A stretch of 64,000 bases of DNA from a virus, in IMG/VR virus record IMGVR_UViG_3300005253_000051, positions 17,506-81,505 of that record; one strand, given 5' to 3'. This document shows, one piece after another, positions 46,873-63,917 of this stretch. Each line of letters opens with the position of its first letter. Within the stretch, counting starts at the first letter, position 1. The notes beneath the pieces are model-generated. The model was given only the letters and a program-made list of their open reading frames with translations. It was not told the DNA's origin and ran no database searches. A program made the translations under genes and the position numbers.

Positions 46873-47441
46873 TTGGTACCGTTTCCTCGTGGTTTTGGGT
46901 TAAGTGCGGCGCCTTGGGTTTGCTCGTGGTCGTCGGAGCCAAACACAGAGGCGCGAGTGTCGGCCGAGGTGATGTCGCCTTTGTCGGCGCCGTCTGGGGC
47001 GTATCTTTGTTCCCAAGATGCACAAAGTGCACGATATTCTACGAAATCTCCGGCCATTTTGTTTTTGGCGCACAGACCCATGGTGCCTTGTTGGAGCCGG
47101 ATCATCCCCTCGTCTTGACTTTCGATGAGTTTGAGCGCGCGCTTGGCGTCGAAACTGCGGCCAATTAGCGAGATTCCCTCTTTTTCTAGGTTCAGTCTCG
47201 CTTTGTACTCCAGTTCGCGACTCCTCTTTACGTAGTAAACTTGTTGTGCTTTCGGGCCGTTATCGAAATGGATGCAATTCTGGCAGCGTTTTGAACGCTC
47301 GATTGTCGGCGCCGAGATGAATAGGTCGGGCTTGTCGCTGGCATTCATGGGTCCTATCATAGACATTCTACGGAATCCGACAAGTGGTGGTTGACGGATT
47401 GGTAACAAGCGCTTAGTTTCGAAGGGTATGGCAGCCGTCAA
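46869..47441 (-). CDS. Hypothetical Cys-containing protein
   Basis: CQNCIHF...GLC...CASW. Confidence 0.55.
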   Translation of the reverse strand: MTAAIPFETKRLLPIRQPPLVGFRRMSMIGPMNASDKPDLFISAPTIERSKRCQNCIHFDNGPKAQQVYYVKRSRELEYKARLNLEKEGISLIGRSFDAKRALKLIESQDEGMIRLQQGTMGLCAKNKMAGDFVEYRALCASWEQRYAPDGADKGDITSADTRASVFGSDDHEQTQGAALNPKPRGNGTK

Positions 47442-49269
47442 AAAACAAGTCGGGTTTGATCTCGCTAAGTTGGCAAAGCTCCCTGGGCCTTTCCGGCTGT
47501 ATCTAACGCGACAACTTCCCGGTGGTCAAAAAGAACCGATCCCTCTGCCGCAGACTGAGTGGTCGAACCAAGAGGTAATCGACTTCGAGAACACCGTTGT
47601 CACTCGTATTTCAGGCGGCGGCAATTACGCGGCGCAGCTTACGACTCTCGACGGCGGCGACGGTTTTACTTGGGAGTTTGGTTACAGCGAAAAACTGTAT
47701 CCTTCGATGGTGCCCCCCGGACTCCAGTCCGCGTATGTGCCTCCACCTGTGACTGTCCAAGGAGCCCCAGTGGCTACACCTGCTCCGATCCCGTATGGCC
47801 TTCAGATTCAGAATCAGAATCAGCCACTCGCGCAGCCGCAGGCGCATTTCGCGACGCCGATTTCCCAACTCTCGGGTCCAGCATACATGTATCCCCCTGG
47901 GTACGGACAACCCATTCCACAGTACCCGTATCCGAGTCCCTATCAGCCACCGCGGCAGGCGGCGGACTCGAAAGAGGACGCGCTGAAAAAGGAACTGGAA
48001 CAGATCAGGCTTGCGAATCAGCAAGCGGAGCACCGACGCGAACGAGAGTCTGATGCAGCGCGTCATACCGCTCAAATGACTTCGTTGCGAGAGGAGATCC
48101 GCCGCGCTTCTGAAGCAGTGAAGCAACCGGCTGGCGAGTCGCCGGAGTTGGTCGCACTCAAGAGCCAGAACGCGATGCTTCAAAAGCAGATTGAAGCTCA
48201 GGCACAGGCCCAGCGCGATATGATGACCAAGATAGAGCGGCAACAAGCCGAGTCACGGGATCAGACGGCGCGAGATGTCGCGCAGCGGCAACACGAAGAG
48301 CGCATGCGCCAGATGGAGGAAAACAGCCGCCGTGAGATGCAGGGTCTCAAGGATCAGATGGCGCTGGTACAGGCCAATAATGGCAAACAAGATCCGATGC
48401 TCCCCTTTCTCATGGAATCGCAGAGGCAGGCTGCCGATGTAGCGCGCGAGCAGGCGCGCACCGCAGCCAGTGCGCCTCAGCAGCTCATGAGCATCGTCGA
48501 AGGTGTGCGGCGTAGCTCCGGTGCTGATCAGATCATGACGAACCTCGCGGGTGCTTACGACTCCGTGAACAACATGGTGATGCGCAACGCCGAGATGATG
48601 GGCAACTTCATGGCGCAGAGCCAAGGTTCACCCGTGATGGGGCTTATCGGCGATGCTTTGCATTCCGGCAAAGAAGTGCTAGCCCAGATGGTGACGGCGA
48701 AGTCGAAATCAGAAGAAGCACGGGCTCAGGCCGACGCCGCCCGCGATCAGCAGACTGCCGCGATTGAATACGCACGGGCTAACGCCGCCGCAGCGGCAGC
48801 GGCCCAGAGCAAGGGTAATGGCGTACCTGAAGAGGATCAGGTCATTCAGGCGACTGAGGCGCGACAGGAAGCAGAAGTCGAGGCGGAACAAGCCAATCAA
48901 GAGGTAGCGAATCTAGAGCCGAAGCTTTTCGGCTCTCTGCTCTGGCCCGAGATTGAAAAACTCCGGCAGTGGATTGCCAAGGAAGGGATCGAAAATGTTG
49001 ATCCCCGTGGCATCGTAGTCATGTTGATCCAGGCAGCTGGAAAGATGAAGGAGAATGGGCTCGACGCCCCCGTCCTCTACTTGTTTGAAAATCAGCAGTG
49101 GGCCGAACTGTTCGATCGTGTCATTCCTGATGTGACCGCTGAATTTGCCAGCGAGTGCGTCAAGATCATGTCTGAGATTAGCACTCGGCTTGCGACAGTG
49201 ACCAAGCCCGAAGAAATTGAGGAGATCCTTCGAGGACCCTCCAAAACCCCGGAACAGACAGCGAACTAG
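47428..49269 (+). CDS. Large Pro-rich and coiled-coil protein
   Basis: 613 aa with a Pro/Gln/Tyr region followed by long Gln/Glu/Arg heptads. Confidence 0.8.
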   Translation: MAAVKKQVGFDLAKLAKLPGPFRLYLTRQLPGGQKEPIPLPQTEWSNQEVIDFENTVVTRISGGGNYAAQLTTLDGGDGFTWEFGYSEKLYPSMVPPGLQSAYVPPPVTVQGAPVATPAPIPYGLQIQNQNQPLAQPQAHFATPISQLSGPAYMYPPGYGQPIPQYPYPSPYQPPRQAADSKEDALKKELEQIRLANQQAEHRRERESDAARHTAQMTSLREEIRRASEAVKQPAGESPELVALKSQNAMLQKQIEAQAQAQRDMMTKIERQQAESRDQTARDVAQRQHEERMRQMEENSRREMQGLKDQMALVQANNGKQDPMLPFLMESQRQAADVAREQARTAASAPQQLMSIVEGVRRSSGADQIMTNLAGAYDSVNNMVMRNAEMMGNFMAQSQGSPVMGLIGDALHSGKEVLAQMVTAKSKSEEARAQADAARDQQTAAIEYARANAAAAAAAQSKGNGVPEEDQVIQATEARQEAEVEAEQANQEVANLEPKLFGSLLWPEIEKLRQWIAKEGIENVDPRGIVVMLIQAAGKMKENGLDAPVLYLFENQQWAELFDRVIPDVTAEFASECVKIMSEISTRLATVTKPEEIEEILRGPSKTPEQTAN

Positions 49270-49587
49270 ATGAACTTTTTGCAGGTCATCTACTTCTATC
49301 AGACCGGGTGTCCCGCTTGTGAAGAGATACGCCCCTTGTTGGACAAGGCCGTGGCGCACTACGCGCAATGTGGCGTCGTGGTTCGCTACGTGGACGTGCA
49401 CCACGAAGGGCTTACTGCCGACACGATGCAGGTCCAGGAAACGCCCACGGTCATCGGCACACGCAACCATTCGCCGGTCACTCGCATGATCGGCGCCCAG
49501 AACGCAGATCAACGACTCGGACAGTTATTCACTGAACTACTCAGCGGCGGCTCGTGCGCGGTCCAGCCATGGCGGGGAGACGTGTAG
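49270..49587 (+). CDS. Thioredoxin-like protein
   Basis: FYQTGCPACEEIRP and the cis-Pro motif VQETPT. Confidence 0.85.
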   Translation: MNFLQVIYFYQTGCPACEEIRPLLDKAVAHYAQCGVVVRYVDVHHEGLTADTMQVQETPTVIGTRNHSPVTRMIGAQNADQRLGQLFTELLSGGSCAVQPWRGDV

Positions 49588-49949
49588 AAATGGTCAAGAA
49601 GGTAGAGATCAAAATCGAGCTTGATGGGGGATCGATCTCGATCGACTGCGAGAATCCCAAGGTTATTTTTTCTGCCTGGGATTCAGAATATTTGGGACGT
49701 ATTGTTTTCTCTTTGGTACAGGAGATACAAAGGCACAAAGAGAACGCCGAGGCAAAATCTCGGTCGGAGCGCCGATGAAACGCAAACGCAAACTCAAACT
49801 GTCTAGACTCACCGTTCGTCAACTCGATCGTGTTCGAGCCGGCGGCGGCAGCTTCATCACGCTGTGGTCTGTCATTTGTTCGGGGGGGCGTACTTGCTAC
49901 CGCTTCACCTGGTGTGGCCCTTGTTCTGATCCCGCTCTTGGGTGTTGAG

Positions 49950-50459
49950 CTACTTCCGTTTCCCGTAGCCCTGTGCGACCGCAATGACCGGGGTGATGAC
50001 GGGGAAGAAGCTGCCCAGCGCGAACCAGACGAGCGCCCAACCGACGCTATTGTTGCGCTTGTAACCGTGGTACGCGCTCACGGCGCCCGAAGCGGTGCTC
50101 AGGATTCCCCACGCCCAGGCGTACTTTTTGTAGTAGGGGTAGAGGCCGTTCGCTTTTCCTTTCGATAGCGCTAGGGCGTCTCCGACAACCCTAGCGTCAC
50201 CACCCGCGGCAATGATCACCGCTGCTAGTTTTTCTTGCGTAGGTCTGTCGTATTGACGAAATACCTCTGCTAACCCAGACATTTGGAGCGAAAACGTCGC
50301 CATCTGTTCGGCGAGTTGGACTGCCGTCGCCGTGATTTGTTCGTCCGACAAAACCGCGCCCAGAGTCGCCATCTCGCGAACCGACAGGGTGCCAAGAGAC
50401 GGCATGTCGCGAACGGACAAGGTACCGAGACCGGGACCGGATGTGTTCAGGGTCATCAT
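49950..50459 (-). CDS. Putative virion membrane protein
   Basis: N-terminal LGTLSVR(D/E)M repeats; C-terminal SAYHGYKRNNSVGWALVW transmembrane hairpin. Confidence 0.7.
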   Translation of the reverse strand: MMTLNTSGPGLGTLSVRDMPSLGTLSVREMATLGAVLSDEQITATAVQLAEQMATFSLQMSGLAEVFRQYDRPTQEKLAAVIIAAGGDARVVGDALALSKGKANGLYPYYKKYAWAWGILSTASGAVSAYHGYKRNNSVGWALVWFALGSFFPVITPVIAVAQGYGKRK

Positions 50460-50471
50460 GATCGATTTCTC

Positions 50472-50960
50472 CTAATGGCGGCGGCTGTACCAGTAGCCGC
50501 CAGCGACAGTTACTCCGGCCCCGAGCGTAAGCGCGACGATCCAACCCCAAGGGGTTTTTTTCGCGGCGATGCGTTTGTAGGCATCCCAGTGAGAAAGGAG
50601 CGCACGGGTCTCGTTGACGACTACGAAGAGGGAGCTAAGATCAATACCGATTTGCGGGTAGGCTCCCTGCTTGGTCATCGCGGCGATACCGGCACCGGTT
50701 GTAGGTTTAGAGATTAGGATGAGCGACGTAACGGCGTTGTCGAATCGCTCCGCTTCGGTTTTGGATATCGGGATGTAGTTCTCAGGCGAGTCACCAGGGA
50801 AGAGCCATCCTTCGACGGGACCCAGCAACTCGGGGGAGTATAGGGCCTTGAGCCCCTTGCCCTCGTTGATGAGCCTTTGAAACATGACCAGGAATGCGCG
50901 CACGACGCTCTCGGCGGCGGGGCCTGCCATGGAAGGGGGGGCACTAAGAAAGCTCAGCAT
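50472..50960 (-). CDS. Protein with a C-terminal membrane anchor
   Basis: PWGWIVALTLGAGVTVAGGYWYSRRH. Confidence 0.65.
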   Translation of the reverse strand: MLSFLSAPPSMAGPAAESVVRAFLVMFQRLINEGKGLKALYSPELLGPVEGWLFPGDSPENYIPISKTEAERFDNAVTSLILISKPTTGAGIAAMTKQGAYPQIGIDLSSLFVVVNETRALLSHWDAYKRIAAKKTPWGWIVALTLGAGVTVAGGYWYSRRH

Positions 50961-50964
50961 GGGT

Positions 50965-51279
50965 TTAGATTTCCTTCGTTGCTACATCGAATACGAGAAC
51001 CATAGCTAAAATCGCGGCGGTACCAAGTAGGAGAGGAGGCAAGATCCCCCATCCAAACCCGCGGCCAGCACCGCGGCCAGCGGTCTCTGCGACCGCCTCG
51101 ACGGTTGTCGAGAGTCGTTGAGGAAGCGTGTCAAGCACAGTGACTGCTCGATCCGCAATGGCGACGCCGGATTTGGCGGCTTCACTGAGCACTAGAGCAA
51201 CCTGGAGGAGATCAGCGCCGGTGATGTCGAGCTGTCCCAGAGTGCCTCCGAACGGCACTACGTGTGACGACGTGAGCAC
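50965..51279 (-). CDS. Protein with a C-terminal membrane anchor
   Basis: GGTLGQ at the N-terminus and a hydrophobic C-terminus. Confidence 0.6.
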   Translation of the reverse strand: MLTSSHVVPFGGTLGQLDITGADLLQVALVLSEAAKSGVAIADRAVTVLDTLPQRLSTTVEAVAETAGRGAGRGFGWGILPPLLLGTAAILAMVLVFDVATKEI

Positions 51280-51282: not shown

Positions 51283-51591
51283 TCATTTCCACGAGCAGCG
51301 GGCAGTTTTGGCGAGTCGCTTGGCTTTGTTGGCGGCGGCGCGGTATTTGCGGGCGGCGCTTGGTTTGCCGGCGCGCTCGGCTACATCAGCCATTTGTTCC
51401 CCGCGGCGGAAGGCAGATAGGAGTCCCATACAGTCGGGCACGCACGGGCCACGATAAGCCATGACCGGAAATTTCAGCTTGCCAGGCATCAGAAAGGCCC
51501 TGGTTCCGCAGCGCTTTCTCAGATCGCGGCGCTGAAATTTGCCTCGTGGCATCCGCTTAGACCAGCCTATTCGGGTTACTCGTCGTGCCAT
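51283..51591 (-). CDS. Highly basic protein
   Basis: MARRVTRIGWSKRMPRG...CGTRAFL..KFPV; Arg/Lys-rich. Confidence 0.65.
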   Translation of the reverse strand: MARRVTRIGWSKRMPRGKFQRRDLRKRCGTRAFLMPGKLKFPVMAYRGPCVPDCMGLLSAFRRGEQMADVAERAGKPSAARKYRAAANKAKRLAKTARCSWK

Positions 51592-51680
51592 AACTGTGGA
51601 CGATACCATTGAAATCGTTGTACTACTAATGTAGGGCACCGCCCCAGAACCCGGATCGGGTGTAAGATCGGAGAAATCTC

Positions 51681-52574
51681 ATGCTATTTGCTGGAGTATT
51701 CGGAGTAGCACCCGGCGCCCCGACCACACCGGATGGTCTGCGCCCCGGCACGCTGGTTGTTTTGGAGCCTGGTCTTCCTCCCATTCGGCCGCCGAATTAT
51801 CGTCAACTGGCACGAGAGGAAGCGGCACGCGCTCGTGCTGCGTACGATTCTGCGTTGACGAAAGCATTTGCGACTGGAGAACAAGCAGTTAGGTCGGGCG
51901 GAACCGATATTTCCAATGCTTCGGCTGCTGAAGCCGTGGCGGTGGCGCAAGAGGTTCTTTCGTTCGTAGTGAGCGCCGAACAAGCGGCAGCAGCACCCGT
52001 AGTGAATCAAGCCGCCTACGAGAAAGCCAAGGCGCAAGCAAGTGTTGCTGTCCAGAAAAAGAACCGCGTCGATGTACTTTTCGCGATCGCGAAGTCTGAT
52101 GCAGATACGGCCGTCGCTGTCATGAAACTTCGCGTAGACGCCGAGGGCGCAGCTACGAGCGCTGAAGGTAGCGCTGCGGTTGCAAAAACAGCTGCGGGGG
52201 CGGCACAAGACGACGCCAGGATTGCTCTCACGATTCGAGCTGAGACAGCAGCCACCGAGGCCGTCGAGTTTTCAGTAGCGGCAGAAAAAGCAGCTATTGA
52301 GGCTAGAAATTCATCGAATACAGCAACGGCTACCCACTACACCAATGTTGTCCCAATTCAGGTAGCTTCTGCGACCGCAGTCGCGCTCTCGAAAACCGCC
52401 GAGGTGTACGCCATGAAAGCCCGGCTATCGGCGGACGTGGCCGCGGAGGAAGCAGGCAAGGGCTCGCCTCCGAGTGATCTTGACAAGTGGTATACGAAAC
52501 CTTGGGTCTGGGCTGTGATCGGTGGCGGCGTTTTGGTGGTCGGCGGCGGCTCATATTTTGTTTTTCGTCGATAA
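51681..52574 (+). CDS. Ala-rich helical protein with a C-terminal membrane anchor
   Basis: Long Ala-rich helix, then WYTKPWVWAVIGGGVLVVGGGSYFVFRR. Confidence 0.75.
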   Translation: MLFAGVFGVAPGAPTTPDGLRPGTLVVLEPGLPPIRPPNYRQLAREEAARARAAYDSALTKAFATGEQAVRSGGTDISNASAAEAVAVAQEVLSFVVSAEQAAAAPVVNQAAYEKAKAQASVAVQKKNRVDVLFAIAKSDADTAVAVMKLRVDAEGAATSAEGSAAVAKTAAGAAQDDARIALTIRAETAATEAVEFSVAAEKAAIEARNSSNTATATHYTNVVPIQVASATAVALSKTAEVYAMKARLSADVAAEEAGKGSPPSDLDKWYTKPWVWAVIGGGVLVVGGGSYFVFRR

Positions 52575-52588
52575 CTGAGGGATAGAAC

Positions 52589-52948
52589 ATGCTCTACGGA
52601 AACAACTACGGTTTGAGTGTATCGCCATTCGGGGTCGAACAACCTCCTCCAGCGCCTCCGCCTCTGATTCCGCATGAGCGTCAAAGGTTGCAAGGGCTAC
52701 CAAGTCTCAGGGGTTTTGGTCAAGCCGATGAAGTGACGGCCGGGGTCCAGACGGCAATCGCGAAGGGCAAGGTCAAACAGATCGCGGTGGTGGATACAAA
52801 ACCAGCCACGATTTTGGTCATGTCGTTCTCTCAGTTCAAAAAAGAGTTTCTCAAAGCTTGGTACGCCAAGTGGTGGGTGTGGGCGATTGCCGGCAGCGTT
52901 GTTGCCGCGGGCGGCGGCACCTACTTGTACATGCGGAGGCGGCGATGA
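52589..52948 (+). CDS. Membrane-anchored protein
   Basis: WYAKWWVWAIAGSVVAAGGGTYLYMRRRR, homologous to the preceding anchor. Confidence 0.75.
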   Translation: MLYGNNYGLSVSPFGVEQPPPAPPPLIPHERQRLQGLPSLRGFGQADEVTAGVQTAIAKGKVKQIAVVDTKPATILVMSFSQFKKEFLKAWYAKWWVWAIAGSVVAAGGGTYLYMRRRR

Positions 52949-53646
52949 TTCTGGGATCAGAACTGGGGAATTTCGGGCGCACCAAAAAAGAGTGGGAATC
53001 GTACCGAGCTGGGTTGAGCCAGGCAAAGCGGAACATCCTCGACTTGAAAAGAGCGCTTTTCTTTATTTCAGCGCAGACGGGCGAAGGCAAGTTCAATCCA
53101 CAGTTTACTGAGAACGAGTACGATCTAGACGCCGAGTTTAGTCTCGATTTGACCCATGCCATCGTCGAGCTAGCCGATGCGGTCTTGAAAAAGATCGGCG
53201 TCACCGACGAAGTGCCTGGGCTCAACACGTTGCTCAGCATCGCATCGCATCGCGCTGTTGTGGCCGGCTTATATTCGGCTCAAAAAAGCGAGATCGATGG
53301 GTACATTCAACGGCTCGCCAACTCAGTCACCGGGTACACCAACAAGGTGCTCAACTTTATCGACGACGTTCGAGACAGAGTTGGGAACTGGACCGGCAAA
53401 TTGAGCATTGCTGATTTGAAAGCTGTCTTTTATTTCATCATCAAGGGTGGTTCGGTGCCGCCTGTTCCAAGTTTGGGCGAGCGTGGACCCACGGTTCCGG
53501 CCCCGTTGCCTTGGGTGACCGTGACACCTAAGTTCCCTGGACTGTTGCCGGTTAGCCCTGAGCGGGTAGTAGTAGGTTATCCAGTGGATTCTTTCACGGT
53601 CCACGATCCAGCGATCAACAAGTGGCGAGTGTTCGTCCGCGCTTAG
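52945..53646 (+). CDS. Putative virion protein, paralog of the next gene
   Basis: Similar helical layout and C-terminal YPVDSFTVHDPAINKWRVFV. Confidence 0.7.
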   Translation: MILGSELGNFGRTKKEWESYRAGLSQAKRNILDLKRALFFISAQTGEGKFNPQFTENEYDLDAEFSLDLTHAIVELADAVLKKIGVTDEVPGLNTLLSIASHRAVVAGLYSAQKSEIDGYIQRLANSVTGYTNKVLNFIDDVRDRVGNWTGKLSIADLKAVFYFIIKGGSVPPVPSLGERGPTVPAPLPWVTVTPKFPGLLPVSPERVVVGYPVDSFTVHDPAINKWRVFVRA

Positions 53647-53652
53647 GGCCCT

Positions 53653-54267
53653 GTGTCGGCGACTGTTTCTACGCTTCAGAAAGCGCTCACGGAGGTGAGT
53701 CGCTGGATGCAGCGCGGCGAGTACAACCCCGGGCGCACCGACGGTACGGTGGACATCTGGACGGCGAACGCAGTGCTAAACGTGATCGCTGATGCGCTTG
53801 AAAAGATTCCCAAGTTCAAGGATCTGATCGATGGGCTCGGCATTGCCTGGGACTTGTTGACATCGCGAACTGGGATTTTAACTGCGTGGATCGCATTTGA
53901 GGGGCAGATCATAACCGCGATCGACCATATTGCTGATGCTCTCGCGCCGCTTTTGAAGGGCATCGTCGAAGTGCTCACGCGGATGCGCCAGGAAATGAAT
54001 AATTTCGACGTCGAGCTTTCTCTTGACGACATCGTGCGCGCGGCCAAATACGTGCTCGGGATGCTGAGCGCGCCGCCAGCGCCGTCCGAGCTAGTGGAGG
54101 AAGAACCGATAGTCGTAGGACCACCCGGAACCGCACAGCCCGACGAGATTTCGAAGCAAGTCCGAGAACAGTTGGCTAAAAAACTCAAAGTCGAGCTGTT
54201 CCCTGAGACGGCGTTCGCTGTCTACAATCCTACCCAGAAGAGCTACCACGTTCTGGTGTCCGCATGA
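53653..54267 (+). CDS. Protein with an N-terminal peptidoglycan-binding-like domain
   Basis: VSTLQKAL...YNPGRTDGTVDIWTANAV resembles PG_binding_1. Confidence 0.6.
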   Translation: MSATVSTLQKALTEVSRWMQRGEYNPGRTDGTVDIWTANAVLNVIADALEKIPKFKDLIDGLGIAWDLLTSRTGILTAWIAFEGQIITAIDHIADALAPLLKGIVEVLTRMRQEMNNFDVELSLDDIVRAAKYVLGMLSAPPAPSELVEEEPIVVGPPGTAQPDEISKQVREQLAKKLKVELFPETAFAVYNPTQKSYHVLVSA

Positions 54268-55229: not shown

Positions 55230-55374
55230 GCAAGTATGTCCTTCAGGGAGCCAATGGCAGCGAGATGCCTTCAAAATCTCGACTCTGTCTACAATCCAGT
55301 GCTATCACACGGATCTAGACGCCGACTGTGTTCTTGGTCTAAGCTAAGTCCTATACCTCCAAGGAGAAACCCTC

Positions 55375-55771: not shown

Positions 55772-56062
55772 ATGTTGGTCGCGGTTCCCCTCGGAGGTTT
55801 TCGAGAGGACGCCATCGATGTCCTCTCGATAGTAGTCGGTGATGCTCAAGCCCAGAACTTCGTTTCTGGGCTTGAGCGACATATTCGAGCAGAGGCAAAA
55901 AGGGGTGCGGAGCAAGCCGCCCCGACGATCGAGGCAAGAGTACGTAAAGCCGCCAAAGACGCGGTGAAACCGTACGTGATTGCGTCCTTGATCATCGGTG
56001 GTCTCGGTGCGGTTGTCGGAGGTTGGGCGCTCGTTCGCTCGTACAGTCGGTACAGGAGATGA
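55772..56062 (+). CDS. Membrane-anchored protein
   Basis: C-terminal transmembrane helix and basic tail. Confidence 0.65.
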   Translation: MLVAVPLGGFREDAIDVLSIVVGDAQAQNFVSGLERHIRAEAKRGAEQAAPTIEARVRKAAKDAVKPYVIASLIIGGLGAVVGGWALVRSYSRYRR

Positions 56063-56063
56063 C

Positions 56064-56648
56064 ATGATCCATGCAGACATGAGGGGATACGTAGGGGTCG
56101 CTCCTGGAACGACGACGTTCACTCTGGGCAAACCGCCGCTGTACGCGCGGATGCCGCAACATCCGACGCAGGCGTGGCTCATCCCACAGGACGCCTACAG
56201 CCAGCAGCAGAAGATCGCTGTTCCGCCGAACCAGATGATCCCGCGCGAAGGCGCGCATATTCCGATCCCGGCGTACCCGACCCAAGCGTATGTGGACTGG
56301 CCGATGGTCAACGACCGGGTGCGGATGGCGATTCCGCCGAACCAGCACTACGTCGGCCCGCAGACGATCAAGGTTCACGTGCCGCCGGTACAGCACACGT
56401 TCGGCCCTTTTCCGAACGACTACATGCTGTCGAAGATCAGTCCGTACCGCGGAGGGTATTTGCCCTATTTCAAGGGCTGGATTTCGGGTCTCGACAAAGA
56501 CGGCAAGTTGGTCACGATTTTCACCCTCGCCGGGCCCGAAGAGGAAGAGAAGGCTGCGAAGCGCTGGGGACGTGCGGCGGGGATCGTGGTTCTTCTAGGA
56601 ATCACCGCGACGGCGGCAGCTGTTGCGATTGCTTGTTTGGCAAAGTGA
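56064..56648 (+). CDS. Pro-rich repeat protein with a C-terminal anchor
   Basis: GYVGVAPGTTT N-terminus shared with the 60920 protein; two PTQA...IA(V/I)PPNQ-like repeats. Confidence 0.7.
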   Translation: MIHADMRGYVGVAPGTTTFTLGKPPLYARMPQHPTQAWLIPQDAYSQQQKIAVPPNQMIPREGAHIPIPAYPTQAYVDWPMVNDRVRMAIPPNQHYVGPQTIKVHVPPVQHTFGPFPNDYMLSKISPYRGGYLPYFKGWISGLDKDGKLVTIFTLAGPEEEEKAAKRWGRAAGIVVLLGITATAAAVAIACLAK

Positions 56649-57004: not shown

Positions 57005-57256
57005 GTGATCAACAAGGCCCCCGTTGATCGATTCACGTTGGCGCATGGGGGCGTCGGTGCTGTCTACGGGCTTGTTCGTTTTCCGTGGTGGGTTGCTCTC
57101 ACGCTCGGAGTCGGCTGGGAACTTGTCGAAATCGAACTAAAGAAACGAATACCGATCATTTTCCCGCACGCGAGCCAAGACACCCTACCGAATGCGACGA
57201 TAGACGTAATCGCGGTCATGATAGGATGGGTTGTCGGTCGGAAAATACGAGGATAA
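57005..57256 (+). CDS. Small membrane protein
   Basis: DRFTLAH...GWELVE...NATID hydrophobic pattern. Confidence 0.6.
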   Translation: MINKAPVDRFTLAHGGVGAVYGLVRFPWWVALTLGVGWELVEIELKKRIPIIFPHASQDTLPNATIDVIAVMIGWVVGRKIRG

Positions 57257-57422: not shown

Positions 57423-58187
57423 ATGAAAGCCAGTAAAACAGAGATCGCGCTGTACGCTCTCTCGGGTGTGTCGTTGATTGGGGCCGTGATCACGTATTTC
57501 AACCAGCGCAAAAAGCCCGCTGAAGATCGCTTCTACGCTCCGATGTTCGCGCTCAGTGGCGGCTTGCTCGTCGGCGCCGGTGCTATGTCGTACAAGCGCA
57601 TGAGCAGTCGCGCGCTCGCGGGCGGCCTCGGGCTCACGAACGACTCGACGCACTACAACAACGGCATGACGCTGCGCACGTGGTCGGATCCCGAGATGGA
57701 CGTCTACTCGCGAGTCGAATTGCTACAAGGTCTCGTGGCATCGTCGAACAAGGATCCGCTCGTCCGCAAAAAGGCACTCGCGGTCACGCACACGTGCCCG
57801 GCACGCGATGATGCATGCGAATTGTCGGCAATCTTCGAGCACAACTCTGATCCTGAAAATGTTCGCTACACTGGTGACATCGGCGCACATGTGCTCGTGC
57901 CCGGTGGTGAGCCCGAAGCCGTGGACACGTTCCAGACGGCGAAGCGCACGCTCGAATTCCGCGGTGGTGACTGCGACGATCATGCCGTGTTGAACGCGAC
58001 CATGGCATCGCAAAACGGTTTTGATACCAAGTTCCGCATCACCAGCAACACCGGCGCGACCTGGGATCACATCTATGCCATGGCGCGCCGCAACGGTGGC
58101 AAGTGGCGCGCGCTCGATACAACACTCGGCCCCGGAAAGTTCGGCAAGGAGCCACGGCAGGCGAAGCACCTCGACTTCCCCGCATAG
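57423..58187 (+). CDS. Transglutaminase-like (Cys-His-Asp) enzyme with N-terminal transmembrane helices
   Basis: VRYTGD, GDCDD (Cys), HIY (His) and WRALDTT (Asp). Confidence 0.88.
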   Translation: MKASKTEIALYALSGVSLIGAVITYFNQRKKPAEDRFYAPMFALSGGLLVGAGAMSYKRMSSRALAGGLGLTNDSTHYNNGMTLRTWSDPEMDVYSRVELLQGLVASSNKDPLVRKKALAVTHTCPARDDACELSAIFEHNSDPENVRYTGDIGAHVLVPGGEPEAVDTFQTAKRTLEFRGGDCDDHAVLNATMASQNGFDTKFRITSNTGATWDHIYAMARRNGGKWRALDTTLGPGKFGKEPRQAKHLDFPA

Positions 58188-58195
58188 GAGACACC

Positions 58196-58756
58196 ATGCT
58201 CTTTGGACAAGTCGATTGCCCTTCTGGATTTCACTGGGACTCAATTGAAGGCCAGTGCGTTGCAGGTCGAGCGCGGCCTGTTTTTACGACCATGCGGCCG
58301 GATATCGTCGATGTCATTCCGGCGCCGCCACCGGCACCACCGACGCCTATTGCACCGACCATTGTACGGCTTCCTCGTCAAGAGTTGCGTCCAGAACGCC
58401 CCGGTTGGAAGTGGTGGTACTGGCTTTTGCTTGCTGGCGGCGTGGGCGGTACGGGCGCATTGCTTTACTACGGACTCAAGCGTAAACGTCCTACAAGTGC
58501 GAATCTACGTGGGGGTCGTAAACGTAAACTATTACTTCCTAGGTATAGTGAGCGGAAAGGGTGGTATGGAGGTTCCAAAAACACACTTTTCGTTTTTACC
58601 GATAAGCGTACGGGGAGTTCTGTTGTACGGCCTGTTTATGATGCCAGAGGCATTGGTCCAGCAGCAGCAGTACGTGTAGCTACACGCGCTGAAGCCGAAA
58701 AAGAATGGCAGTCTCCTTTACGTGCTGGATGGCAAACTCTTGGTCGTAGGCGTTAG
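58196..58756 (+). CDS. Membrane protein with a basic C-terminal region
   Basis: AGGAG RBS, CPSGFHWD..C, Pro-rich linker, transmembrane helix and KRKR. Confidence 0.65.
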   Translation: MLFGQVDCPSGFHWDSIEGQCVAGRARPVFTTMRPDIVDVIPAPPPAPPTPIAPTIVRLPRQELRPERPGWKWWYWLLLAGGVGGTGALLYYGLKRKRPTSANLRGGRKRKLLLPRYSERKGWYGGSKNTLFVFTDKRTGSSVVRPVYDARGIGPAAAVRVATRAEAEKEWQSPLRAGWQTLGRRR

Positions 58757-59334
58757 GTGATTCCCAACTCGGCGCGCGCCTGCTGGTGAGCTGCGTTGAT
58801 CGCCTTGAACATCTCTTCGTCGCCGCCGTGATCCGGGTGGTGTTTCCTCGATAATTTATGGAACGCCTCTTTGACTTCTTCGCGTGTCGCGTCCGGCGGC
58901 AACCGCAAGATCGACCACCACGTTTTTTCGTGACCTTTGCTCGTCTGCTGGAACGGCAAGAACGCATCTTGCCAGCGCATCAGCCCGTGCTTGACTGCTT
59001 GGTCTAACGATTCGAGCATGAGCGAGATGATGCGTAGATTGCCTTGTGCCGATGTCGCGCGGGTGGTTCGGATCGAGTACCGGATTTTTTCGTAGGTGAA
59101 ATCGACGTTGGCGCTGCTGTCGTCGGAGTGGATCACGAACGGAATCGGCACGTGCTTCAGCACGTAGTAACCGGGTTTGTTGTTACCAGGAGGGTCCGTG
59201 ATCCATACCGAGTCTGGATCTTCTTCGACCGAGGGGAAAAAGCGCTGTCCTCCCAGGCTGTTCATGAGAGCTGAAATTCTGCCCTCAGGATCGATGAGGC
59301 TCGTCCCGAGTTTACTCACCCATTCAGAAATCAT
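58753..59334 (-). CDS. DnaJ (J-domain) protein
   Basis: WWSILRL...VKEAFHKLSRKHHPDHGG. Confidence 0.88.
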   Translation of the reverse strand: MISEWVSKLGTSLIDPEGRISALMNSLGGQRFFPSVEEDPDSVWITDPPGNNKPGYYVLKHVPIPFVIHSDDSSANVDFTYEKIRYSIRTTRATSAQGNLRIISLMLESLDQAVKHGLMRWQDAFLPFQQTSKGHEKTWWSILRLPPDATREEVKEAFHKLSRKHHPDHGGDEEMFKAINAAHQQARAELGIT

Positions 59335-59679: not shown

Positions 59680-59988
59680 ATGATGAGCGCCGCGATCATG
59701 ACTCGCCCCGACGACGTATATCGCACGGGCGTGATTCAGCCGTACAACATCATGACGCGCACTGCCGGCCAGCAAGCGCAGGACTCCATCAGCCGGTTCA
59801 TCCAAGTTGCTCGCCCTCACGGTGCTTACGTCGGCCTCGACGGAGCTGGTTTTGGTCTTGTAACCCCCGAAGTGATCCGCACTCTCGGTGCCGAAAACGA
59901 TGAGGACAAGACGAACAGATACTACTGGGCAGCCGGTGGTGTGCTTCTCGGCTTGCTCGGCGGCGTTCTCATCGGAAGGGCGCTGTAG
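59680..59988 (+). CDS. Membrane-anchored protein
   Basis: C-terminal transmembrane helix. Confidence 0.7.
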   Translation: MMSAAIMTRPDDVYRTGVIQPYNIMTRTAGQQAQDSISRFIQVARPHGAYVGLDGAGFGLVTPEVIRTLGAENDEDKTNRYYWAAGGVLLGLLGGVLIGRAL

Positions 59989-59999
59989 GAATCGGTGTC

Positions 60000-60185
60000 G
60001 TGCCTAGCGTTTACACCATTTCCGGCGCTTCTCAGAATGCACACGCCTTCCAGATCTCGACGCTAACAGGGGCGGAAGATGAAATTGATCGAGTCAAAAG
60101 ACAAAGCTGGTACATCGCTGGAGGTAGTGCGGTTATCGGCATTCTCATCGGAGTTTTTGTCGGCATCGCGGTGAAGGGGTCCTAA
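60000..60185 (+). CDS. Small membrane-anchored protein
   Basis: Shares MPxVYTISG with the next gene; C-terminal transmembrane helix. Confidence 0.65.
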   Translation: MPSVYTISGASQNAHAFQISTLTGAEDEIDRVKRQSWYIAGGSAVIGILIGVFVGIAVKGS

Positions 60186-60189
60186 CTCG

Positions 60190-60873
60190 ATGCCGCACGT
60201 GTACACGATTTCTGGATCTACGGAGGGGCGAATGGCTCGACGACGACATTATGGAACGTTCATGGGACCCGACGGCCTCAGCCCACTCGTTGGCGCAGCG
60301 GCCGGTGCAGGTGTTGGAACAATCACAGCTATTGCAGTTCGTCGATTTTCGTCGATGGACAGCTGGAGTGAGCTGGTTGGCATGGGCGGCGGGGTTCTTA
60401 CGGGGCTCGTCATGATGTTCCCCGAAGGCTCACGGCAAGCAGGCATTGCTGCCACAGTGACTGCGATTCTCAATAACGGCGTGCGCTTTGCGGCCTCGAA
60501 GATCTTCGAGAAAGAGAAGATCCGCGATGCGATGGGCGAGCTGGCGACTCTCAAGGAAAAGTCCCCCGAGAAGCTCGCGCTCAAGACCCAGTACGACGCG
60601 CTTGTTGCTCAGATCGAGACGGTCAAGGTGGTCAAGGACAACATGGGCCTTGTGCGGCCAGAGCAGGTCCCTACGCTGGCCGGCGGTCTCGGAGCAGTGT
60701 CGGCGCATCCGATGCAGCTGGCGGCGGTCTCGACACACGATCCGGGGGCTCTGGGAACTCTGTCGGTCCGCGATATGCCCCTGGCTGATGGCGGTGAGAC
60801 GGGGGCGGGACCTCCGGTTCAACTCGTCGGCCTTGGGAAGCACTACGGTGCCACGATTTACGGTTCCCGGTAA
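60190..60873 (+). CDS. Putative major virion membrane protein
   Basis: Gly-rich transmembrane helices and a C-terminal region with several LG motifs, including LGTLSVRDMP; directly upstream of the capsid candidates. Confidence 0.6.
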   Translation: MPHVYTISGSTEGRMARRRHYGTFMGPDGLSPLVGAAAGAGVGTITAIAVRRFSSMDSWSELVGMGGGVLTGLVMMFPEGSRQAGIAATVTAILNNGVRFAASKIFEKEKIRDAMGELATLKEKSPEKLALKTQYDALVAQIETVKVVKDNMGLVRPEQVPTLAGGLGAVSAHPMQLAAVSTHDPGALGTLSVRDMPLADGGETGAGPPVQLVGLGKHYGATIYGSR

Positions 60874-60919
60874 GACGCCGTGGGCCATTGAACAACGTTA
60901 GAAAAACGGAGGAATCACA

Positions 60920-61627
60920 ATGGGTTATGTAGGCGTCGCACCAGGTACCACCACCATCACTTTGCCCGATGGCCGCACCGTTGCACTGTCCGACTGGATC
61001 GACGACAAGCTGTACGGCTCGATCCAGCTCGTCAACGGGCAGACCAACGAAGTCATGGCGTTTTCCAACGGCCGCAGCCAGCCGATTCCGAACGGGACGC
61101 GCGTCCAGACCCGCGTGGACACGAATGTGCCCCGCGCTGGCGAAGCGGGTCTTCCGAAGGACTGGGAGATGTACGTGTACGGCTGGGGCATCAAACTCGT
61201 TCGCGCGATGCGTCCGCCGAGCGGTGCTACACAGCCTGTGCTGGCCGACGGCAACGGTGCACTTTCGGATCCGGTCGATCAGCGTACGTACTTCAACCTG
61301 GATCGAGTGATCTTTTTCCAGTACAGGTACAACAACAAGGCGTACACCGATGGTGTCATGCAGGACTACCCACAGGGTGGCGGCCTGAACCTCGTGACGA
61401 CCAACGCCGCTCGCGAGCAGGTCACCAACGGTATTCCCAGCCCGCGCGACCGCGTTGCGCTGGTCATCCCGGTGTACGAGCGTGAGAACCTGGGCTATTC
61501 GGGGATTTTCCAGCCGGAAGCCCCGCTCGGCATCAACCAGCCGCCTTCGGATGGCGACCAGGTACAGTTGACCTTCGTCGATCTGAAACTTTACAAGTGG
61601 GGCCTCATCCGCCGTACCGTCGTCTAG
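60920..61627 (+). CDS. Candidate major capsid protein (large, single jelly-roll type)
   Basis: Strong GGAGG RBS, strongly biased codons, beta-rich 235 aa, downstream hairpin; the fold is inferred. Confidence 0.5.
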   Translation: MGYVGVAPGTTTITLPDGRTVALSDWIDDKLYGSIQLVNGQTNEVMAFSNGRSQPIPNGTRVQTRVDTNVPRAGEAGLPKDWEMYVYGWGIKLVRAMRPPSGATQPVLADGNGALSDPVDQRTYFNLDRVIFFQYRYNNKAYTDGVMQDYPQGGGLNLVTTNAAREQVTNGIPSPRDRVALVIPVYERENLGYSGIFQPEAPLGINQPPSDGDQVQLTFVDLKLYKWGLIRRTVV

Positions 61628-61640
61628 TCGATCTAGTCTT

Positions 61641-61669
61641 GGGATCTCGGGACAGTTTCCCGAGATCCC
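61641..61669 (+). terminator. Stable hairpin between the two capsid candidates
   Basis: GGGATCTCGGGA-CAGTT-TCCCGAGATCCC. Confidence 0.7.
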
Positions 61670-61702
61670 TTGGCTTCGTGTACTATGGCAACAGGGTGAG
61701 AC

Positions 61703-62197
61703 ATGGGCATTTTTCCGACGTCATTTGCCGACCAGTCCATCAAGTATCGGATTCCGTATTCGATGCCGGGCGAGTTGATCGTTGATACCGGTCTCACTAA
61801 CGTAGAGTTTCCGGCGGCGGCGTTCCTGCAAAACACAGAGTTGCCGTTTGAAATTCACGCTGTGAAGCTCGTCGCAGCGCAGGATTTGAACGCAGCGGGA
61901 CAGCCGTTTGTTCCGATCGCTGATCCAGCCCCGAGCATTGATCAGTTTTGGCGCGTGCGAATCCGCGACACGAGCAAGATCAACGCTGTGATCACGAAAA
62001 ATGCCCAGCTCGTGGCATCGCTCAAATCCGATCTGAGCGGCTATTGGGAGTGGGATTATCCCTACACGATCGTCAATTCGGAGGGGTTCACGATCTCGGT
62101 GGACAATCTGTTGACGGCACCTGCTCGACTCCGTGCCGCGATTACGTTCATCGGTTACTCGCTGGTTATTCGTCCCCCGAGCCAGACACGCGGATAG
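61703..62197 (+). CDS. Candidate second capsid protein (small jelly-roll type)
   Basis: 164-aa beta-rich protein ending in ITFIGY; position next to the first candidate. Confidence 0.45.
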   Translation: MGIFPTSFADQSIKYRIPYSMPGELIVDTGLTNVEFPAAAFLQNTELPFEIHAVKLVAAQDLNAAGQPFVPIADPAPSIDQFWRVRIRDTSKINAVITKNAQLVASLKSDLSGYWEWDYPYTIVNSEGFTISVDNLLTAPARLRAAITFIGYSLVIRPPSQTRG

Positions 62198-62236
62198 GTT
62201 GGACGCTCAGCTCTGGCGCTGGCATCATGGGAAAAC

Positions 62237-62983
62237 GTGAAGCCAGTCGTCAAAATGGAACCCACCAAGTTTCGCACCGTGTCGCTTCCTGCTGTGGGGA
62301 GCCGATCAGATGCGGCGGTTCCACTAGTTGAACCGCGACCGACGTTTCAACGCGTCGTCATCGTTCAGAGCACCGGCGCGCCAGGTGCTTTCGTTTCAGC
62401 AAGCGCGCAAGAGTTAAACACGTCCGGAGCTATCTTCGGTTTGGGTTTTCAGCTCATTGTGCCTGGTCCTTTTTCGTCGATGGTGCTGGTGATTTCTCCG
62501 CATCAGACGCTTTACGGGGTGGGGACATCCCTGGTGATTCCCACGAGGGTGTCCATATCAACTTCGGTCGAAGTGCCAGCGGTCTCTAAAGAATTCGAGG
62601 ATGAATGCCCATCCACTTGGTTTCGCACGATTTCGATTCCGACGGTTGAAGCCATTCAGATCGTGCCTGGTGGAGGCATTCCGAAGCGGGTCGTCATCGA
62701 GAGTCGTCCGCCCCCGTTGCCGGCGCCAGCTTCGTCGATTTTCATTTCTGATTCTGCGGAAGAGCTGAACATCCCCTCGCCCGTTCCAGGGGGCTCGTTC
62801 GAGTTGTTGCGTTCGGGTAGCCGGCCGCCTCGTGTCATCTTCATCACAGCCCCTCAGCAGCCGCTGTATGCCATCCATCGGCCTGCGATGGGTCCGGCGA
62901 ACATCTCCGTGTCCGTGTCTAACCTTCATCTGGCGGCGTTACGCGGCCCCACAGGTATCCCTGGCCCGGACGGTGAAGAATGA
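62237..62983 (+). CDS. Two-domain beta-sandwich repeat protein
   Basis: Two FRT...RVVI...F(I/V)S.SA.EL...P.Q.LY...IS units. Confidence 0.65.
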   Translation: MKPVVKMEPTKFRTVSLPAVGSRSDAAVPLVEPRPTFQRVVIVQSTGAPGAFVSASAQELNTSGAIFGLGFQLIVPGPFSSMVLVISPHQTLYGVGTSLVIPTRVSISTSVEVPAVSKEFEDECPSTWFRTISIPTVEAIQIVPGGGIPKRVVIESRPPPLPAPASSIFISDSAEELNIPSPVPGGSFELLRSGSRPPRVIFITAPQQPLYAIHRPAMGPANISVSVSNLHLAALRGPTGIPGPDGEE

Positions 62984-63642
62984 CGGGGATGGCGCCGACC
63001 ACTTTCCGCACGCACACGCTCCGGCCGCTGGGGCAAGATGCGGTTACGATCGCGTCACCTGCACCGCACTTCCGCCGGGTGATTATCTTTCAGCGCCTCG
63101 CGCTCACGGGCGCATTCATTTCACGAAGCGCCACCGAGTTGACTATCCCAGACCAGGTACAACCCGGAGACGCATATCAGCTCCCTGTGACCCCAGCACA
63201 GCCCAGGGTGTTCGTGCTGGCTCCTGGAGATGCGCTGTATGCGGGCGGGGGAACATCGGCTGGCGGACTGGCTAGTGTGTCGGTATCGATCTCACAAGAG
63301 ATTCTTGGCCTTGCGCCGATTTATGAAGTTAGGACGGTGTTTCGCACTTTTACGGTGCCTATCAGTGGCATCAACCCGTCGATCACGATTGTTCCTATCG
63401 CCCAGGTCCCTCGACGCATGATCGTGACCTCGGTCTCTGTAGGCGGCGGCGTTTTTCTGAGTACGTCGGCTCAAGAGCTGGACATTCCTCAAGTGGTACC
63501 CGGTGAAGGGTTCGATGTCGGGGGCGGAGGTATTTTTGTGGTCGGGCCTGGGCAGGCTTTGTATGGGATACGTACTTTTGCTCCTGCGGCACAGATCTCA
63601 GTTTCGATCTCAGACATCCACCTAACATCTGGATCTTCCTGA
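62980..63642 (+). CDS. Two-domain beta-sandwich repeat protein (paralog)
   Basis: The same unit twice. Confidence 0.65.
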   Translation: MTGMAPTTFRTHTLRPLGQDAVTIASPAPHFRRVIIFQRLALTGAFISRSATELTIPDQVQPGDAYQLPVTPAQPRVFVLAPGDALYAGGGTSAGGLASVSVSISQEILGLAPIYEVRTVFRTFTVPISGINPSITIVPIAQVPRRMIVTSVSVGGGVFLSTSAQELDIPQVVPGEGFDVGGGGIFVVGPGQALYGIRTFAPAAQISVSISDIHLTSGSS

Positions 63643-63917
63643 TGCAGCAGTCCATTTTTCAAACGATTACGTTGGTGGCCGATGGCATCGGGCGCATTGT
63701 CGTGCCTGCGGATCCGTCATGGCGGCGTGTCCTCATTGGAAATGTGATCGGGACCATTTTCATTTCTGCTAGCTTCAGTGAAGATGTTCTAACCGATGCG
63801 ATTCGTGTAGGTGGAGGGGAAACGTTTGTTATTTCACCCACTCAGATGCTGTACGCGACAGTGTTCAAAGCGGGTGCCGTTTCTACCATTTCCATCCATG
63901 TATCTCACGTGGTCTAG
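63642..63917 (+). CDS. Single-domain member of the same family
   Basis: FQT...RRVLI...FIS...PTQMLYA...ISI. Confidence 0.6.
   Translation: MQQSIFQTITLVADGIGRIVVPADPSWRRVLIGNVIGTIFISASFSEDVLTDAIRVGGGETFVISPTQMLYATVFKAGAVSTISIHVSHVV

Follow-up and report, generated by a model that had tools for sequence, protein, structure and literature searches.

The stretch of DNA analysed here, a 64,000-nucleotide window of the IMG/VR virus record IMGVR_UViG_3300005253_000051 (referred to throughout as the window), raises the question of what kind of virion is encoded by its membrane-protein-rich region at positions 47428-63917. An earlier note on this DNA had proposed a large tailless jelly-roll virus with a tailed-phage-like replication module and with kinship to the sphaerolipoviruses and phage P23-77. 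Overall, our analysis indicates that this region probably forms the core of the module for virion morphogenesis in a bacterial virus with a complete genome of 81.4 kb, a jelly-roll shell, a membrane and no tail, where both membrane-containing and tailless are properties that we infer from gene content alone. With respect to the earlier proposal, the genome size, the missing tailed-phage genes and the jelly rolls all stood up to closer analysis, whereas the sphaerolipovirus/P23-77 kinship did not.

A complete viral genome without detectable tailed-phage morphogenesis genes

The window represents bases 17506-81505 of a single 81,505-bp contig, the first 121 bases of which are identical to its last 121 bases, giving a unique length of 81.4 kb. 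IMG/VR assigns the record to the class "direct terminal repeats", and its CheckV completeness is 100. Given the identical ends and this CheckV value, the record is therefore complete, and genes outside the window could be checked as well. The same DNA was also found in marine-sediment metagenomes of two studies (83-99% of sampled words). With respect to gene content, genes for replication and nucleotide metabolism occupy the minus-strand half of the window, in which the PolA and ThyX named in the earlier note were both located, together with a Cas12-like protein. The 17.5 kb outside the window contributes a tyrosine integrase, an M23 peptidase, an SLT transglycosylase and many open reading frames (ORFs) without a family. 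Curated frames were used in place of greedily called ORFs, which in this G+C-rich DNA include spurious antisense ORFs (for example 49541-49984, 55236-55727 and 58203-58679).

Searches for tailed-phage genes and packaging motors covered the whole genome. Specifically, ~134 ORFs were scanned against Pfam (E ≤ 0.001) and ~134 against PHROGs, and beyond domain-level or weak matches neither scan returned a terminase, portal, HK97 capsid, scaffold, tail or FtsK/A32-type ATPase family. Four profiles (Terminase_6N, Phage_portal, Phage_capsid and FtsK_SpoIIIE) were also searched in all six frames and gave no match at E ≤ 1, and control genomes were positive. A canonical Walker A motif was found by six-frame scan in one real ORF only, that of a MoxR-type ATPase. 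Moreover, the ORFs of at least 400 amino acids (aa) number eight, namely the primase-helicase, PolA, the exonuclease, the helicase, the Cas12-like protein, a VWA-metallopeptidase, the MoxR ATPase and a 613-aa coiled-coil protein. All of these are assigned except the coiled-coil protein, which has no P-loop, and therefore no ORF of terminase or portal size is left over. The absence of recognizable terminase, portal, HK97 capsid and tail genes that had been pointed out for the window is consequently also true of the 17.5 kb outside it. The packaging ATPase that had been expected beyond the window, by contrast, is found nowhere in the complete genome, either by the six-frame FtsK_SpoIIIE search or by the Walker A scan.

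These results extend to related viruses. Terminase_6N, portal and HK97 capsid searches gave no match in five complete-length records of relatives, which measure 80-221 kb and of which two have terminal repeats. The search for an FtsK/A32-type ATPase returned nothing there but P-loop matches below the cut-off, and one of these falls in a protein of the AAA_24 recombinase type. For the HK97 capsid in particular, six-frame Phage_capsid searches found none in the genome and none in any of the five relatives, which leaves room for a strongly diverged HK97 protein among the family-less ORFs of 260-320 aa. Taken together, the genome is complete and viral, and it has no detectable tailed-phage morphogenesis genes or packaging nucleoside triphosphatase (NTPase).

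Several individual matches were examined and set aside. A "Phage_T7_Capsid" match is spurious, as the protein that contains it (28019-28657) is of HNH-HTH type and has 27 HTH families overlapping there. Tape-measure and "minor head protein" PHROGs matches of the M23 protein cover its peptidase domain only (residues 46-143), and a "TraF" match, considered as a conjugation gene, is a thioredoxin fold. P-loop ORFs of 333-353 aa in the relatives were rejected as packaging ATPases, being AAA_24 recombinase-type proteins. Finally, a universal packaging role for the MoxR ATPase is not supported; a provirus in a Gemmatimonadota chromosome has it too, but tblastn did not find it in two complete relatives.

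The two jelly-roll proteins and their relatives

The adjacent beta-rich proteins of 235 and 164 aa to which attention had been drawn are conserved, and structure models predict both to be all-beta jelly rolls rather than HK97 folds, the 235-aa protein being a single barrel. Both outcomes that the earlier note had named as refuting its proposal, an HK97 fold for these proteins and terminase, portal and tail genes in the flanking sequence, were looked for and not found. In a first ranking of structural matches, the 235-aa protein was most similar to chains of Sulfolobus polyhedral virus 1 (SPV1; score 7.6, 137 residues aligned, root-mean-square deviation 3.5), HHIV-2 (7.4) and HCIV-1 (7.3), and the first non-capsid match was an unrelated monooxygenase (6.7). 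A second ranking, of Foldseek's best 1000 chains, gave SPV1 (8.4), HHIV-2 (7.3), SH1 (7.1) and the monooxygenase (6.7), with the P23-77 VP16-VP17 complex at 6.5, VP17 at 5.4 and VP16 at 5.1. Two independent rankings hence both place shell proteins of archaeal viruses with a membrane in the first three positions. The SPV1 structure is PDB 6OJ0, whose matched chains are either VP4 or VP10. These observations are consistent with a role for the 235-aa protein as a candidate major capsid protein, and for the 164-aa protein as a candidate penton or second capsid protein. A common origin of the two jelly rolls was not apparent, with no detectable sequence relation between them (hhalign probability 0.5%), and a predicted complex of the pair scored 0.00 against a mark of 0.32, which tells nothing either way.

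The 235-aa family is large. At least 365 relatives were found in a collection of 5.8 billion proteins (110 representatives at 50% clustering), and the best 120 of them are 61-88% identical, are in no case functionally named and occur on contigs of up to 232 kb. Gene neighbourhoods were compared at 18 loci located by pattern scans, comprising 15 IMG/VR loci on contigs of 39-221 kb and three in prokaryote genome assemblies. The 235-aa shell gene is present at all 18, with 54-67% identity, and within the lineage no other gene comes close to it in conservation. The far more variable 164-aa gene is found at 15 of the 18 (28-42% identity), always downstream on the same strand, and a 169-aa membrane protein was matched by tblastn at 10 (34-64% identity). 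A further companion is the transglutaminase-like gene, also singled out in the earlier note, which occurs at 16 of the 18 loci with 35-48% identity, always on the same strand and 3.5-6.5 kb upstream of the shell gene. Its Pfam Transglut_core match lies at the cut-off (E 9.4e-5; 23.1 bits versus 23.0), and all 12 aligned homologues keep Cys184, His216 and Asp232.

Two of the relatives are complete with terminal repeats, G4 (85.6 kb) and G3 (137.9 kb), and they permit a core gene set to be outlined. Genes common to both and to the present genome are the integrase, the Dam methylase, the 190-aa and 613-aa pair, the 169-aa membrane protein, the transglutaminase-like gene, both jelly rolls and a BclA_C-like domain. 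A TSCPD-domain protein is shared with G4 only and a weak PolA segment with G3 only; the replication genes are otherwise largely unshared, and tblastn found no ATPase in common. The expectation of a virus much larger than the described single-jelly-roll membrane viruses was accordingly borne out, at 81.4 kb here and 77-221 kb among relatives.

A further relative lies inside the closed 4.74-Mb chromosome of a Gemmatimonadota metagenome-assembled genome (CP070815.1), in which seven genes are shared over 45 kb (3,674,048-3,719,165). These encode the 245-aa protein, VWA, MoxR, a BclA_C-like protein, the second jelly roll, the shell protein and the 169-aa protein. The 245-aa/VWA/MoxR module of this provirus (3,674,048-3,677,350) shows 30-42% identity to that of the window and was not found in G3 or G4; as judged from these sequences it is an accessory module. 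The stretch examined was 180 kb, including 400 masked bases, and the terminase matches of the chromosome fall at 0.05-1.6 Mb, more than 2 Mb from the provirus, so that the same search served as a positive control. The presence of this relative in a Gemmatimonadota chromosome means that some members of the lineage are integrated in bacteria and presumably temperate. The other two assemblies carry the labels Actinomycetes and Polyangiales; being short binned contigs, they provide weak host evidence. The M23 and SLT hydrolases, together with the chromosomal relative, point to a peptidoglycan-bearing bacterium as the host.

The integrated relative also bears on whether the element is a virus at all. 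An integrative element or plasmid could encode jelly rolls as surface, adhesin or nucleoplasmin-like chaperone proteins and membrane proteins as a transfer or secretion apparatus, and the encoded integrase, the chromosomal relative, the many membrane proteins and the failure to find a packaging enzyme would all fit such an element. The Pfam scans, however, returned no family of conjugation, relaxase or type IV secretion proteins, the lone TraF match being the thioredoxin fold mentioned above, and the phage-type replication and nucleotide-metabolism genes, the lysins (M23, SLT) and a set of TNF-like fibre paralogues instead indicate a virus. IMG/VR and CheckV, moreover, class the genome and relatives as complete viruses with terminal repeats, and the top structural matches of the 235-aa protein are capsid proteins. 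On this evidence a non-viral origin is distinctly improbable.

A number of observations weigh against a tailless, membrane-containing jelly-roll virus. The virus is known from its genes alone, and not from virion, proteome, lipid or microscopy data. No sequence link to solved capsids exists, as profile searches of the PDB with both jelly rolls gave chance matches only (E 0.53 and 1), and tblastn of the 235-aa shell and transglutaminase-like proteins against 50,697 phage records produced nothing beyond one chance match (E 3). Kinship with SSIP-1, a tailless membrane-containing phage considered further below, was rejected at the sequence level, with a best profile E of 0.78 and chance-level blastp matches for both jelly rolls and all ORFs. 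For the 164-aa protein, nucleoplasmin-like proteins and a monooxygenase score as high as capsid proteins. Jelly rolls also serve as decoration, cement and fibre proteins of tailed phages, and several such chains are among the structural matches. The Atlas clusters of the 235-aa family are machine-labelled "Viruses, commonest Uroviricota", a label that applies to the minority of members with a known phylum. Two proteins of the structural region, in the row at 52945-55229, have weak PHROGs tape-measure matches (E 0.0065-0.097, chance level), and one PHROGs scan rests on the best 25 of 65 matched families, so that weak matches on some small replication-region ORFs may be missed; the structural ORFs were rescanned singly against PHROGs. 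Finally, an inner-membrane icosahedral double-stranded DNA (dsDNA) virus without a packaging ATPase would be unusual, and the morphogenesis set could be merely unrecognized.

Several of these points are also what would be seen if the genome belonged to a highly diverged tailed phage whose HK97, portal, terminase and tail genes escape detection and whose jelly rolls are decoration, cement or receptor-binding proteins. The weak tape-measure matches, the Uroviricota labels and a replication module of tailed-phage type all lean in this direction. The genome nonetheless has no unassigned ORF of at least 400 aa apart from the coiled-coil protein, which has no ATPase motif. The six-frame terminase, portal and capsid searches were blank in the genome and in five relatives, yet found terminases elsewhere in the Gemmatimonadota chromosome. 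In addition, a decoration protein would be unlikely as the best conserved gene of the lineage (54-67% identity versus 28-48% for its neighbours). We therefore regard a diverged tailed phage as very improbable.

The membrane-protein-rich structural region

The report of more than a dozen membrane-anchored ORFs was confirmed by curation. Positions 47428-63917 contain ~25 genes, on the plus strand with one minus-strand island, and ~14 of the 25 curated ORFs have a hydrophobic anchor (Table 1). A hydropathy scan (19-residue window, cut-off 1.6, with the beta-rich 62237 protein left out of the count) was passed by 10 ORFs, starting at 49950(-), 50965(-), 51681, 54264, 55772, 56064, 57423, 59680, 60000 and 60190. 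Four further ORFs, at 50472(-), 52589, 57005 and 58103, have either a Gly/aromatic-rich C-terminal anchor followed by Arg/Lys or a weaker hydrophobic segment. An earlier cut-off of 1.35 proved unspecific, being passed by 33 of 96 ORFs outside the module, and was replaced by 1.6 together with a tail-anchor pattern. Most of the anchored ORFs encode small proteins that end in a Gly/aromatic-rich segment and then Arg or Lys. When this pattern was defined strictly (at least 18 uncharged residues ending at most 15 residues from the C-terminus, then a basic residue), it was found in 10 of 38 ORFs of the structural part (window 47428 to the end plus genome 1-7100) versus 1 of 96 elsewhere. The anchored proteins thus run across the record ends into genome 1-7100, forming a block of ~24 kb, and in this outer part the M23 peptidase, the SLT transglycosylase and several unnamed proteins bear membrane anchors. 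The M23 protein also has an extra C-terminal domain of ~120 aa with no assigned function.

Table 1. Features of the structural region and of other parts of the genome. Positions are those of the window unless marked as genome positions.
Position	Strand	Feature	Evidence or remark
16352-21013	-	MoxR-type AAA+ ATPase, VWA-metallopeptidase (DUF2201) and 245-aa protein	three-gene module
20970-21680, 24831-25583, 25595-26344, 26360-27106	-	four fibre-type paralogues	common N-terminal domain of ~110 aa
	-	DUF5906-type primase-helicase, 856 aa	minus-strand block; family scans
	-	PD-(D/E)XK exonuclease; SF2 helicase; family A DNA polymerase (PolA)	minus-strand block; family scans
	-	ThyX; Dam methylase; HNH endonucleases; dATP/dGTP pyrophosphohydrolase	minus-strand block; family scans
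	-	Cas12-like protein	minus-strand block; family scans
45356-45805	+	149-aa Gly/Ala-rich protein, probably beta-rich	no family match; immediately precedes structural block
46869-47441	-	190-aa Cys-containing protein, conserved core	tblastn match in G3 and G4 beside 613-aa homologue; no Pfam/PHROGs family
47428-49269	+	613-aa protein	no Pfam family, no Walker A
49270-49587	+	thioredoxin-like protein, 105 aa	Pfam Thioredoxin E 1.1e-9
49950-50459	-	169-aa membrane protein, conserved core, with conserved hydrophobic region at C-terminus	hydropathy 2.07; 10/18 loci
50472-51279	-	162-aa and 104-aa C-terminally anchored membrane proteins	162-aa fits tail-anchor pattern; 104-aa hydropathy 2.42
51283-51639	-	118-aa strongly basic protein	no family at E ≤ 0.001
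51681-52948	+	297-aa Ala-rich and 119-aa proteins	both end in Trp-x-Trp, Gly-rich anchor, then Arg
52945-55229	+	233-, 204- and 321-aa proteins in a row	similar short C-terminal beta module after Pro-rich linker
55772-56648	+	96-aa and 194-aa tail-anchored membrane proteins	hydropathy 2.06 and 2.58
57005-57256	+	83-aa small hydrophobic protein	hydropathy scan
57423-58187	+	transglutaminase-like (papain-fold Cys-His-Asp) protein	N-terminal membrane anchor
58103-58756	+	217-aa ORF, start uncertain	central Trp/Gly-rich hydrophobic segment; no family
58753-59334	-	193-aa protein, C-terminal DnaJ (J) domain	Pfam DnaJ E 3.8e-11; phrog_9210 E 8.6e-15
59680-60873	+	102-, 61- and 227-aa membrane proteins	directly upstream of shell gene; 227-aa at 6/18 loci, same position
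60920-61627	+	235-aa single jelly-roll protein, candidate major capsid protein	GGAGG ribosome-binding site upstream
61703-62197	+	164-aa jelly-roll protein, candidate penton or second capsid protein	
62237-63917	+	248-, 220- and 91-aa genes, five copies of ~100-aa beta-rich domain	arranged 2+2+1
genome 4194-5985	-	M23 peptidase (344 aa) and SLT transglycosylase (261 aa)	hydrophobic anchor each; outside window
genome 7096-7299		67-aa extremely basic protein, two ~30-aa repeats joined by Arg-Gly run	edge of membrane-protein block; outside window

A feature of the region that may relate to shell assembly is an 11-residue peptide, G-Y-V-G-V-A-P-G-T-T-T, with which both the 194-aa membrane protein (56064-56110) and the 235-aa protein (60920-60960) begin. 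In the model of the 235-aa protein, the N-terminal arm that carries this peptide is of low confidence (predicted local distance difference test, pLDDT, 52-76). The common peptide may be a docking arm that ties the shell to the membrane. Short peptides recur elsewhere as well. The 61-aa (60000-60185) and 227-aa (60190-60873) proteins have their first ~8 residues in common, and an LGTLSVRDMP-type peptide occurs twice in the 169-aa protein (49950-50459(-)) and once in the 227-aa protein (60190-60873). The recurrence of such peptides in otherwise unrelated membrane proteins, alongside a conserved Cys-His-Asp protein, could reflect processing sites.

The left edge of the region is formed by the divergent 190-aa and 613-aa genes. 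In the protein encoded by the latter, a conserved N-terminal domain of ~100 aa is followed by a linker rich in Pro, Gln and Tyr, then by a long, charged coiled coil and finally by a globular domain at the C-terminus; homologues with the same layout are 699 aa long in G4 and 711 aa in G3. The 613-aa protein is a candidate scaffold or assembly protein. A function as capsid-size ruler is unsupported, as length does not scale with genome size (613 aa/81.5 kb, 699 aa/85.6 kb and 711 aa/138 kb). The J-domain protein, whose minus-strand gene lies midway through the structural block, may recruit host Hsp70 for assembly. Two basic proteins also stand out on the basis of composition; the 118-aa protein is, speculatively, a DNA-binding or DNA-condensing protein, and the 67-aa protein is a candidate for DNA condensation. 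The 321-aa member of the row of three proteins with C-terminal beta modules has two hydrophobic segments as well.

Downstream of the jelly rolls, the five copies of the beta-rich domain are related to each other by pairwise local alignment scores of 4.5-21 SD (standard deviations) above shuffles. The Atlas neighbours of these proteins are cupin/TNF-like, the PRD1_P5_spike_N lead reaching 0.84 only, and speculatively the 248-, 220- and 91-aa proteins are candidate vertex or spike parts. Candidates for host recognition are provided by the four minus-strand paralogues. Receptor-binding proteins usually combine a constant anchor with a variable head. Three of the paralogues (24831-27106) follow their common N-terminal domain with a variable BclA_C (TNF/C1q-like) head, with Pfam E values of 1.1e-5, 3.3e-5 and 7e-3 that are all below the cut-off, and the 20970-21680 paralogue has no Pfam family match; unrelated genes occupy the interval from 21680 to 24831. 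BclA_C-like domains adjoin the shell gene in three relatives and are also present in G3, G4 and the Gemmatimonadota provirus. All four paralogues are, on this pattern, candidate receptor-binding fibres.

With respect to virion architecture, membrane proteins by themselves are no proof of a virion membrane. An alternative is a jelly-roll virus of another build, for example one that has no inner membrane and whose anchored proteins serve assembly, exclusion or lysis from within the host membrane, or one in which a motor such as MoxR plus VWA goes unrecognized. The sharing of MoxR, the VWA-metallopeptidase and their 245-aa neighbour with the Gemmatimonadota provirus fits such a motor, and the 248- and 220-aa proteins, with their tandem beta domains, might supply a second shell component of double-barrel type. 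BLAST did not find MoxR or VWA in either complete relative (G3, G4), however, which places them outside the universal core, and the tandem beta-domain genes were matched at only 1 of the 18 loci. Membrane-containing phages such as PRD1, furthermore, carry membrane-anchored peptidoglycan hydrolases in the virion. A different build of this kind seems unlikely, and a jelly-roll shell associated with a virion membrane is the reading that we carry forward.

Comparison with known viruses and implications

Among described viruses, the closest predicted build, as far as can be told, is that of the Portogloboviridae, which fits better than the sphaerolipovirus/P23-77 type. The outer shell of SPV1 consists of two small single jelly-roll proteins, with VP4 hexamers and VP10 pentamers, over a lipid layer (PMC8459092). 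Its DNA is condensed as a nucleoprotein core (VP1, A-form DNA), many of its proteins are small membrane proteins, and it carries CRISPR arrays (PMC8459092). A putative function is given for 9 of its 45 ORFs (seven DNA-binding proteins, a glycosyltransferase and a methyltransferase), with no annotated packaging ATPase (PMC8459092). The likeness therefore comprises two small jelly-roll shell proteins (candidates in our case), a lipid layer (presumed from gene content here), no annotated packaging ATPase and many membrane proteins. In contrast, the Portogloboviridae have a hyperthermophilic archaeal host and a circular 20-kb genome, as opposed to a bacterial host, a marine-sediment source and 81 kb here (relatives to 221 kb). 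SPV1 is also without replication genes, whereas the present virus has PolA, a primase-helicase and more. Profile searches found no sequence similarity between SPV1 and the two jelly-roll proteins. Unlike SPV1 with its VP1 nucleocapsid protein, the present genome has no such protein identified, in an analysis that made no comparison with the VP1 sequence.

Sphaerolipoviridae, Simuloviridae and P23-77 encode an FtsK/A32-type packaging ATPase beside their capsid genes. No such ATPase of the Helvetiavirae is found in the present genome. These viruses, whose two capsid proteins are vertical single beta-barrels (PDB 6H82, 6H9C, 6QT9 and 3ZMN/3ZMO/3ZN6), resemble ours in having two adjacent single-jelly-roll genes of capsid size, and also in their tailless inner-membrane build, as suggested here by the genes. 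Their genomes, going by published abstracts, measure 16-31 kb versus 81,505 bp. The kinship proposed in the earlier note is not supported, in view of the lack of a packaging ATPase in the genome and five relatives, the lack of sequence similarity and the low structural rank of P23-77.

Tectiviridae and Corticoviridae have genomes of 10-15 kb. With PRD1 and PM2 the present virus would share a membrane rich in small viral proteins, virion-borne peptidoglycan hydrolases and TNF-like vertex spikes. Those families, however, have a single double-barrel capsid protein and a packaging ATPase, neither of which was detected here; P3 and P2 capsid Pfam families gave no match at E ≤ 0.001, and the shell candidate is a single barrel, although the 248- and 220-aa proteins, each with two beta domains in tandem, might be double barrels. 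Atlas comparisons gave weak leads to P2, P3 and P5 families, with scores of 0.75-0.84 that lie below the trusted 0.9. The PRD1 packaging ATPase is P9. SSIP-1, which infects bacteria, has a membrane and no tail; it uses capsid proteins of two types, and its genome has hardly any likeness to other GenBank entries. Its circular 43.8-kb genome is the largest of such a phage among the records compared, although only about half the size of the present genome or less, and its 2,319-aa structural protein has no counterpart here. The virus is thus a member neither of the Portogloboviridae nor of the sphaerolipovirus/P23-77 group, and it is not related to SSIP-1 by sequence.

If the region does encode a jelly-roll shell and a membrane, a virion of the following kind can be envisaged. 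The 235-aa protein would form the capsomers or facets of an icosahedral shell, and the more variable 164-aa protein the pentons or a second capsomer type. This shell would surround a protein-rich lipid vesicle holding the tail-anchored proteins, the M23 and SLT enzymes and the transglutaminase-like protease, which could act at entry, maturation or exit. The TNF-like fibre paralogues, and perhaps the small repeated beta-domain proteins, would decorate the vertices. Because no packaging NTPase was found, DNA may more likely be enclosed by condensation or co-assembly, as in SPV1, than pumped into a preformed shell, with the small basic proteins (window 51283-51639; genome 7096-7299) as candidates for condensing it.

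There is a realistic chance that the virus represents a new high-rank lineage. A fuller proposal, which we consider possible rather than probable, is that of an undescribed, widespread, high-rank lineage of bacterial dsDNA viruses of ~77-230 kb, with a jelly-roll shell over a lipid vesicle and motor-less, SPV1-like DNA condensation. Among bacterial viruses they would be the equivalent of the portogloboviruses, at four to ten times the genome size. Our search of the full-text literature found no description of large jelly-roll tailless bacterial viruses, and papers or supplements beyond that search could hold one. Described prokaryotic jelly-roll viruses with an inner membrane have small genomes, ~16-44 kb among the records and abstracts compared. 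According to a 2026 review, eight of ten virus realms lie below ~60 kb, large genomes occur only in the Duplodnaviria and the eukaryote-infecting Varidnaviria, and genome size is linked to capsid architecture and packaging density.

Should the proposal be correct, it would break the pattern in which only tailed phages and eukaryotic giant viruses exceed this ceiling of ~60 kb. A bacterial jelly-roll lineage of 80-220 kb that has its own PolA-based replication, encodes CRISPR-Cas and an integrase and lacks a packaging ATPase would serve as a direct test case for the ideas of the review, and would raise the question of how 80-220 kb of DNA is enclosed without a terminase or an FtsK-type motor. 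It would also mean that sediment and soil viromes contain a new kind of large phage that current pipelines label as tailed. The family is common, with at least 365 relatives of the 235-aa protein, so that the answer would matter for virome annotation.

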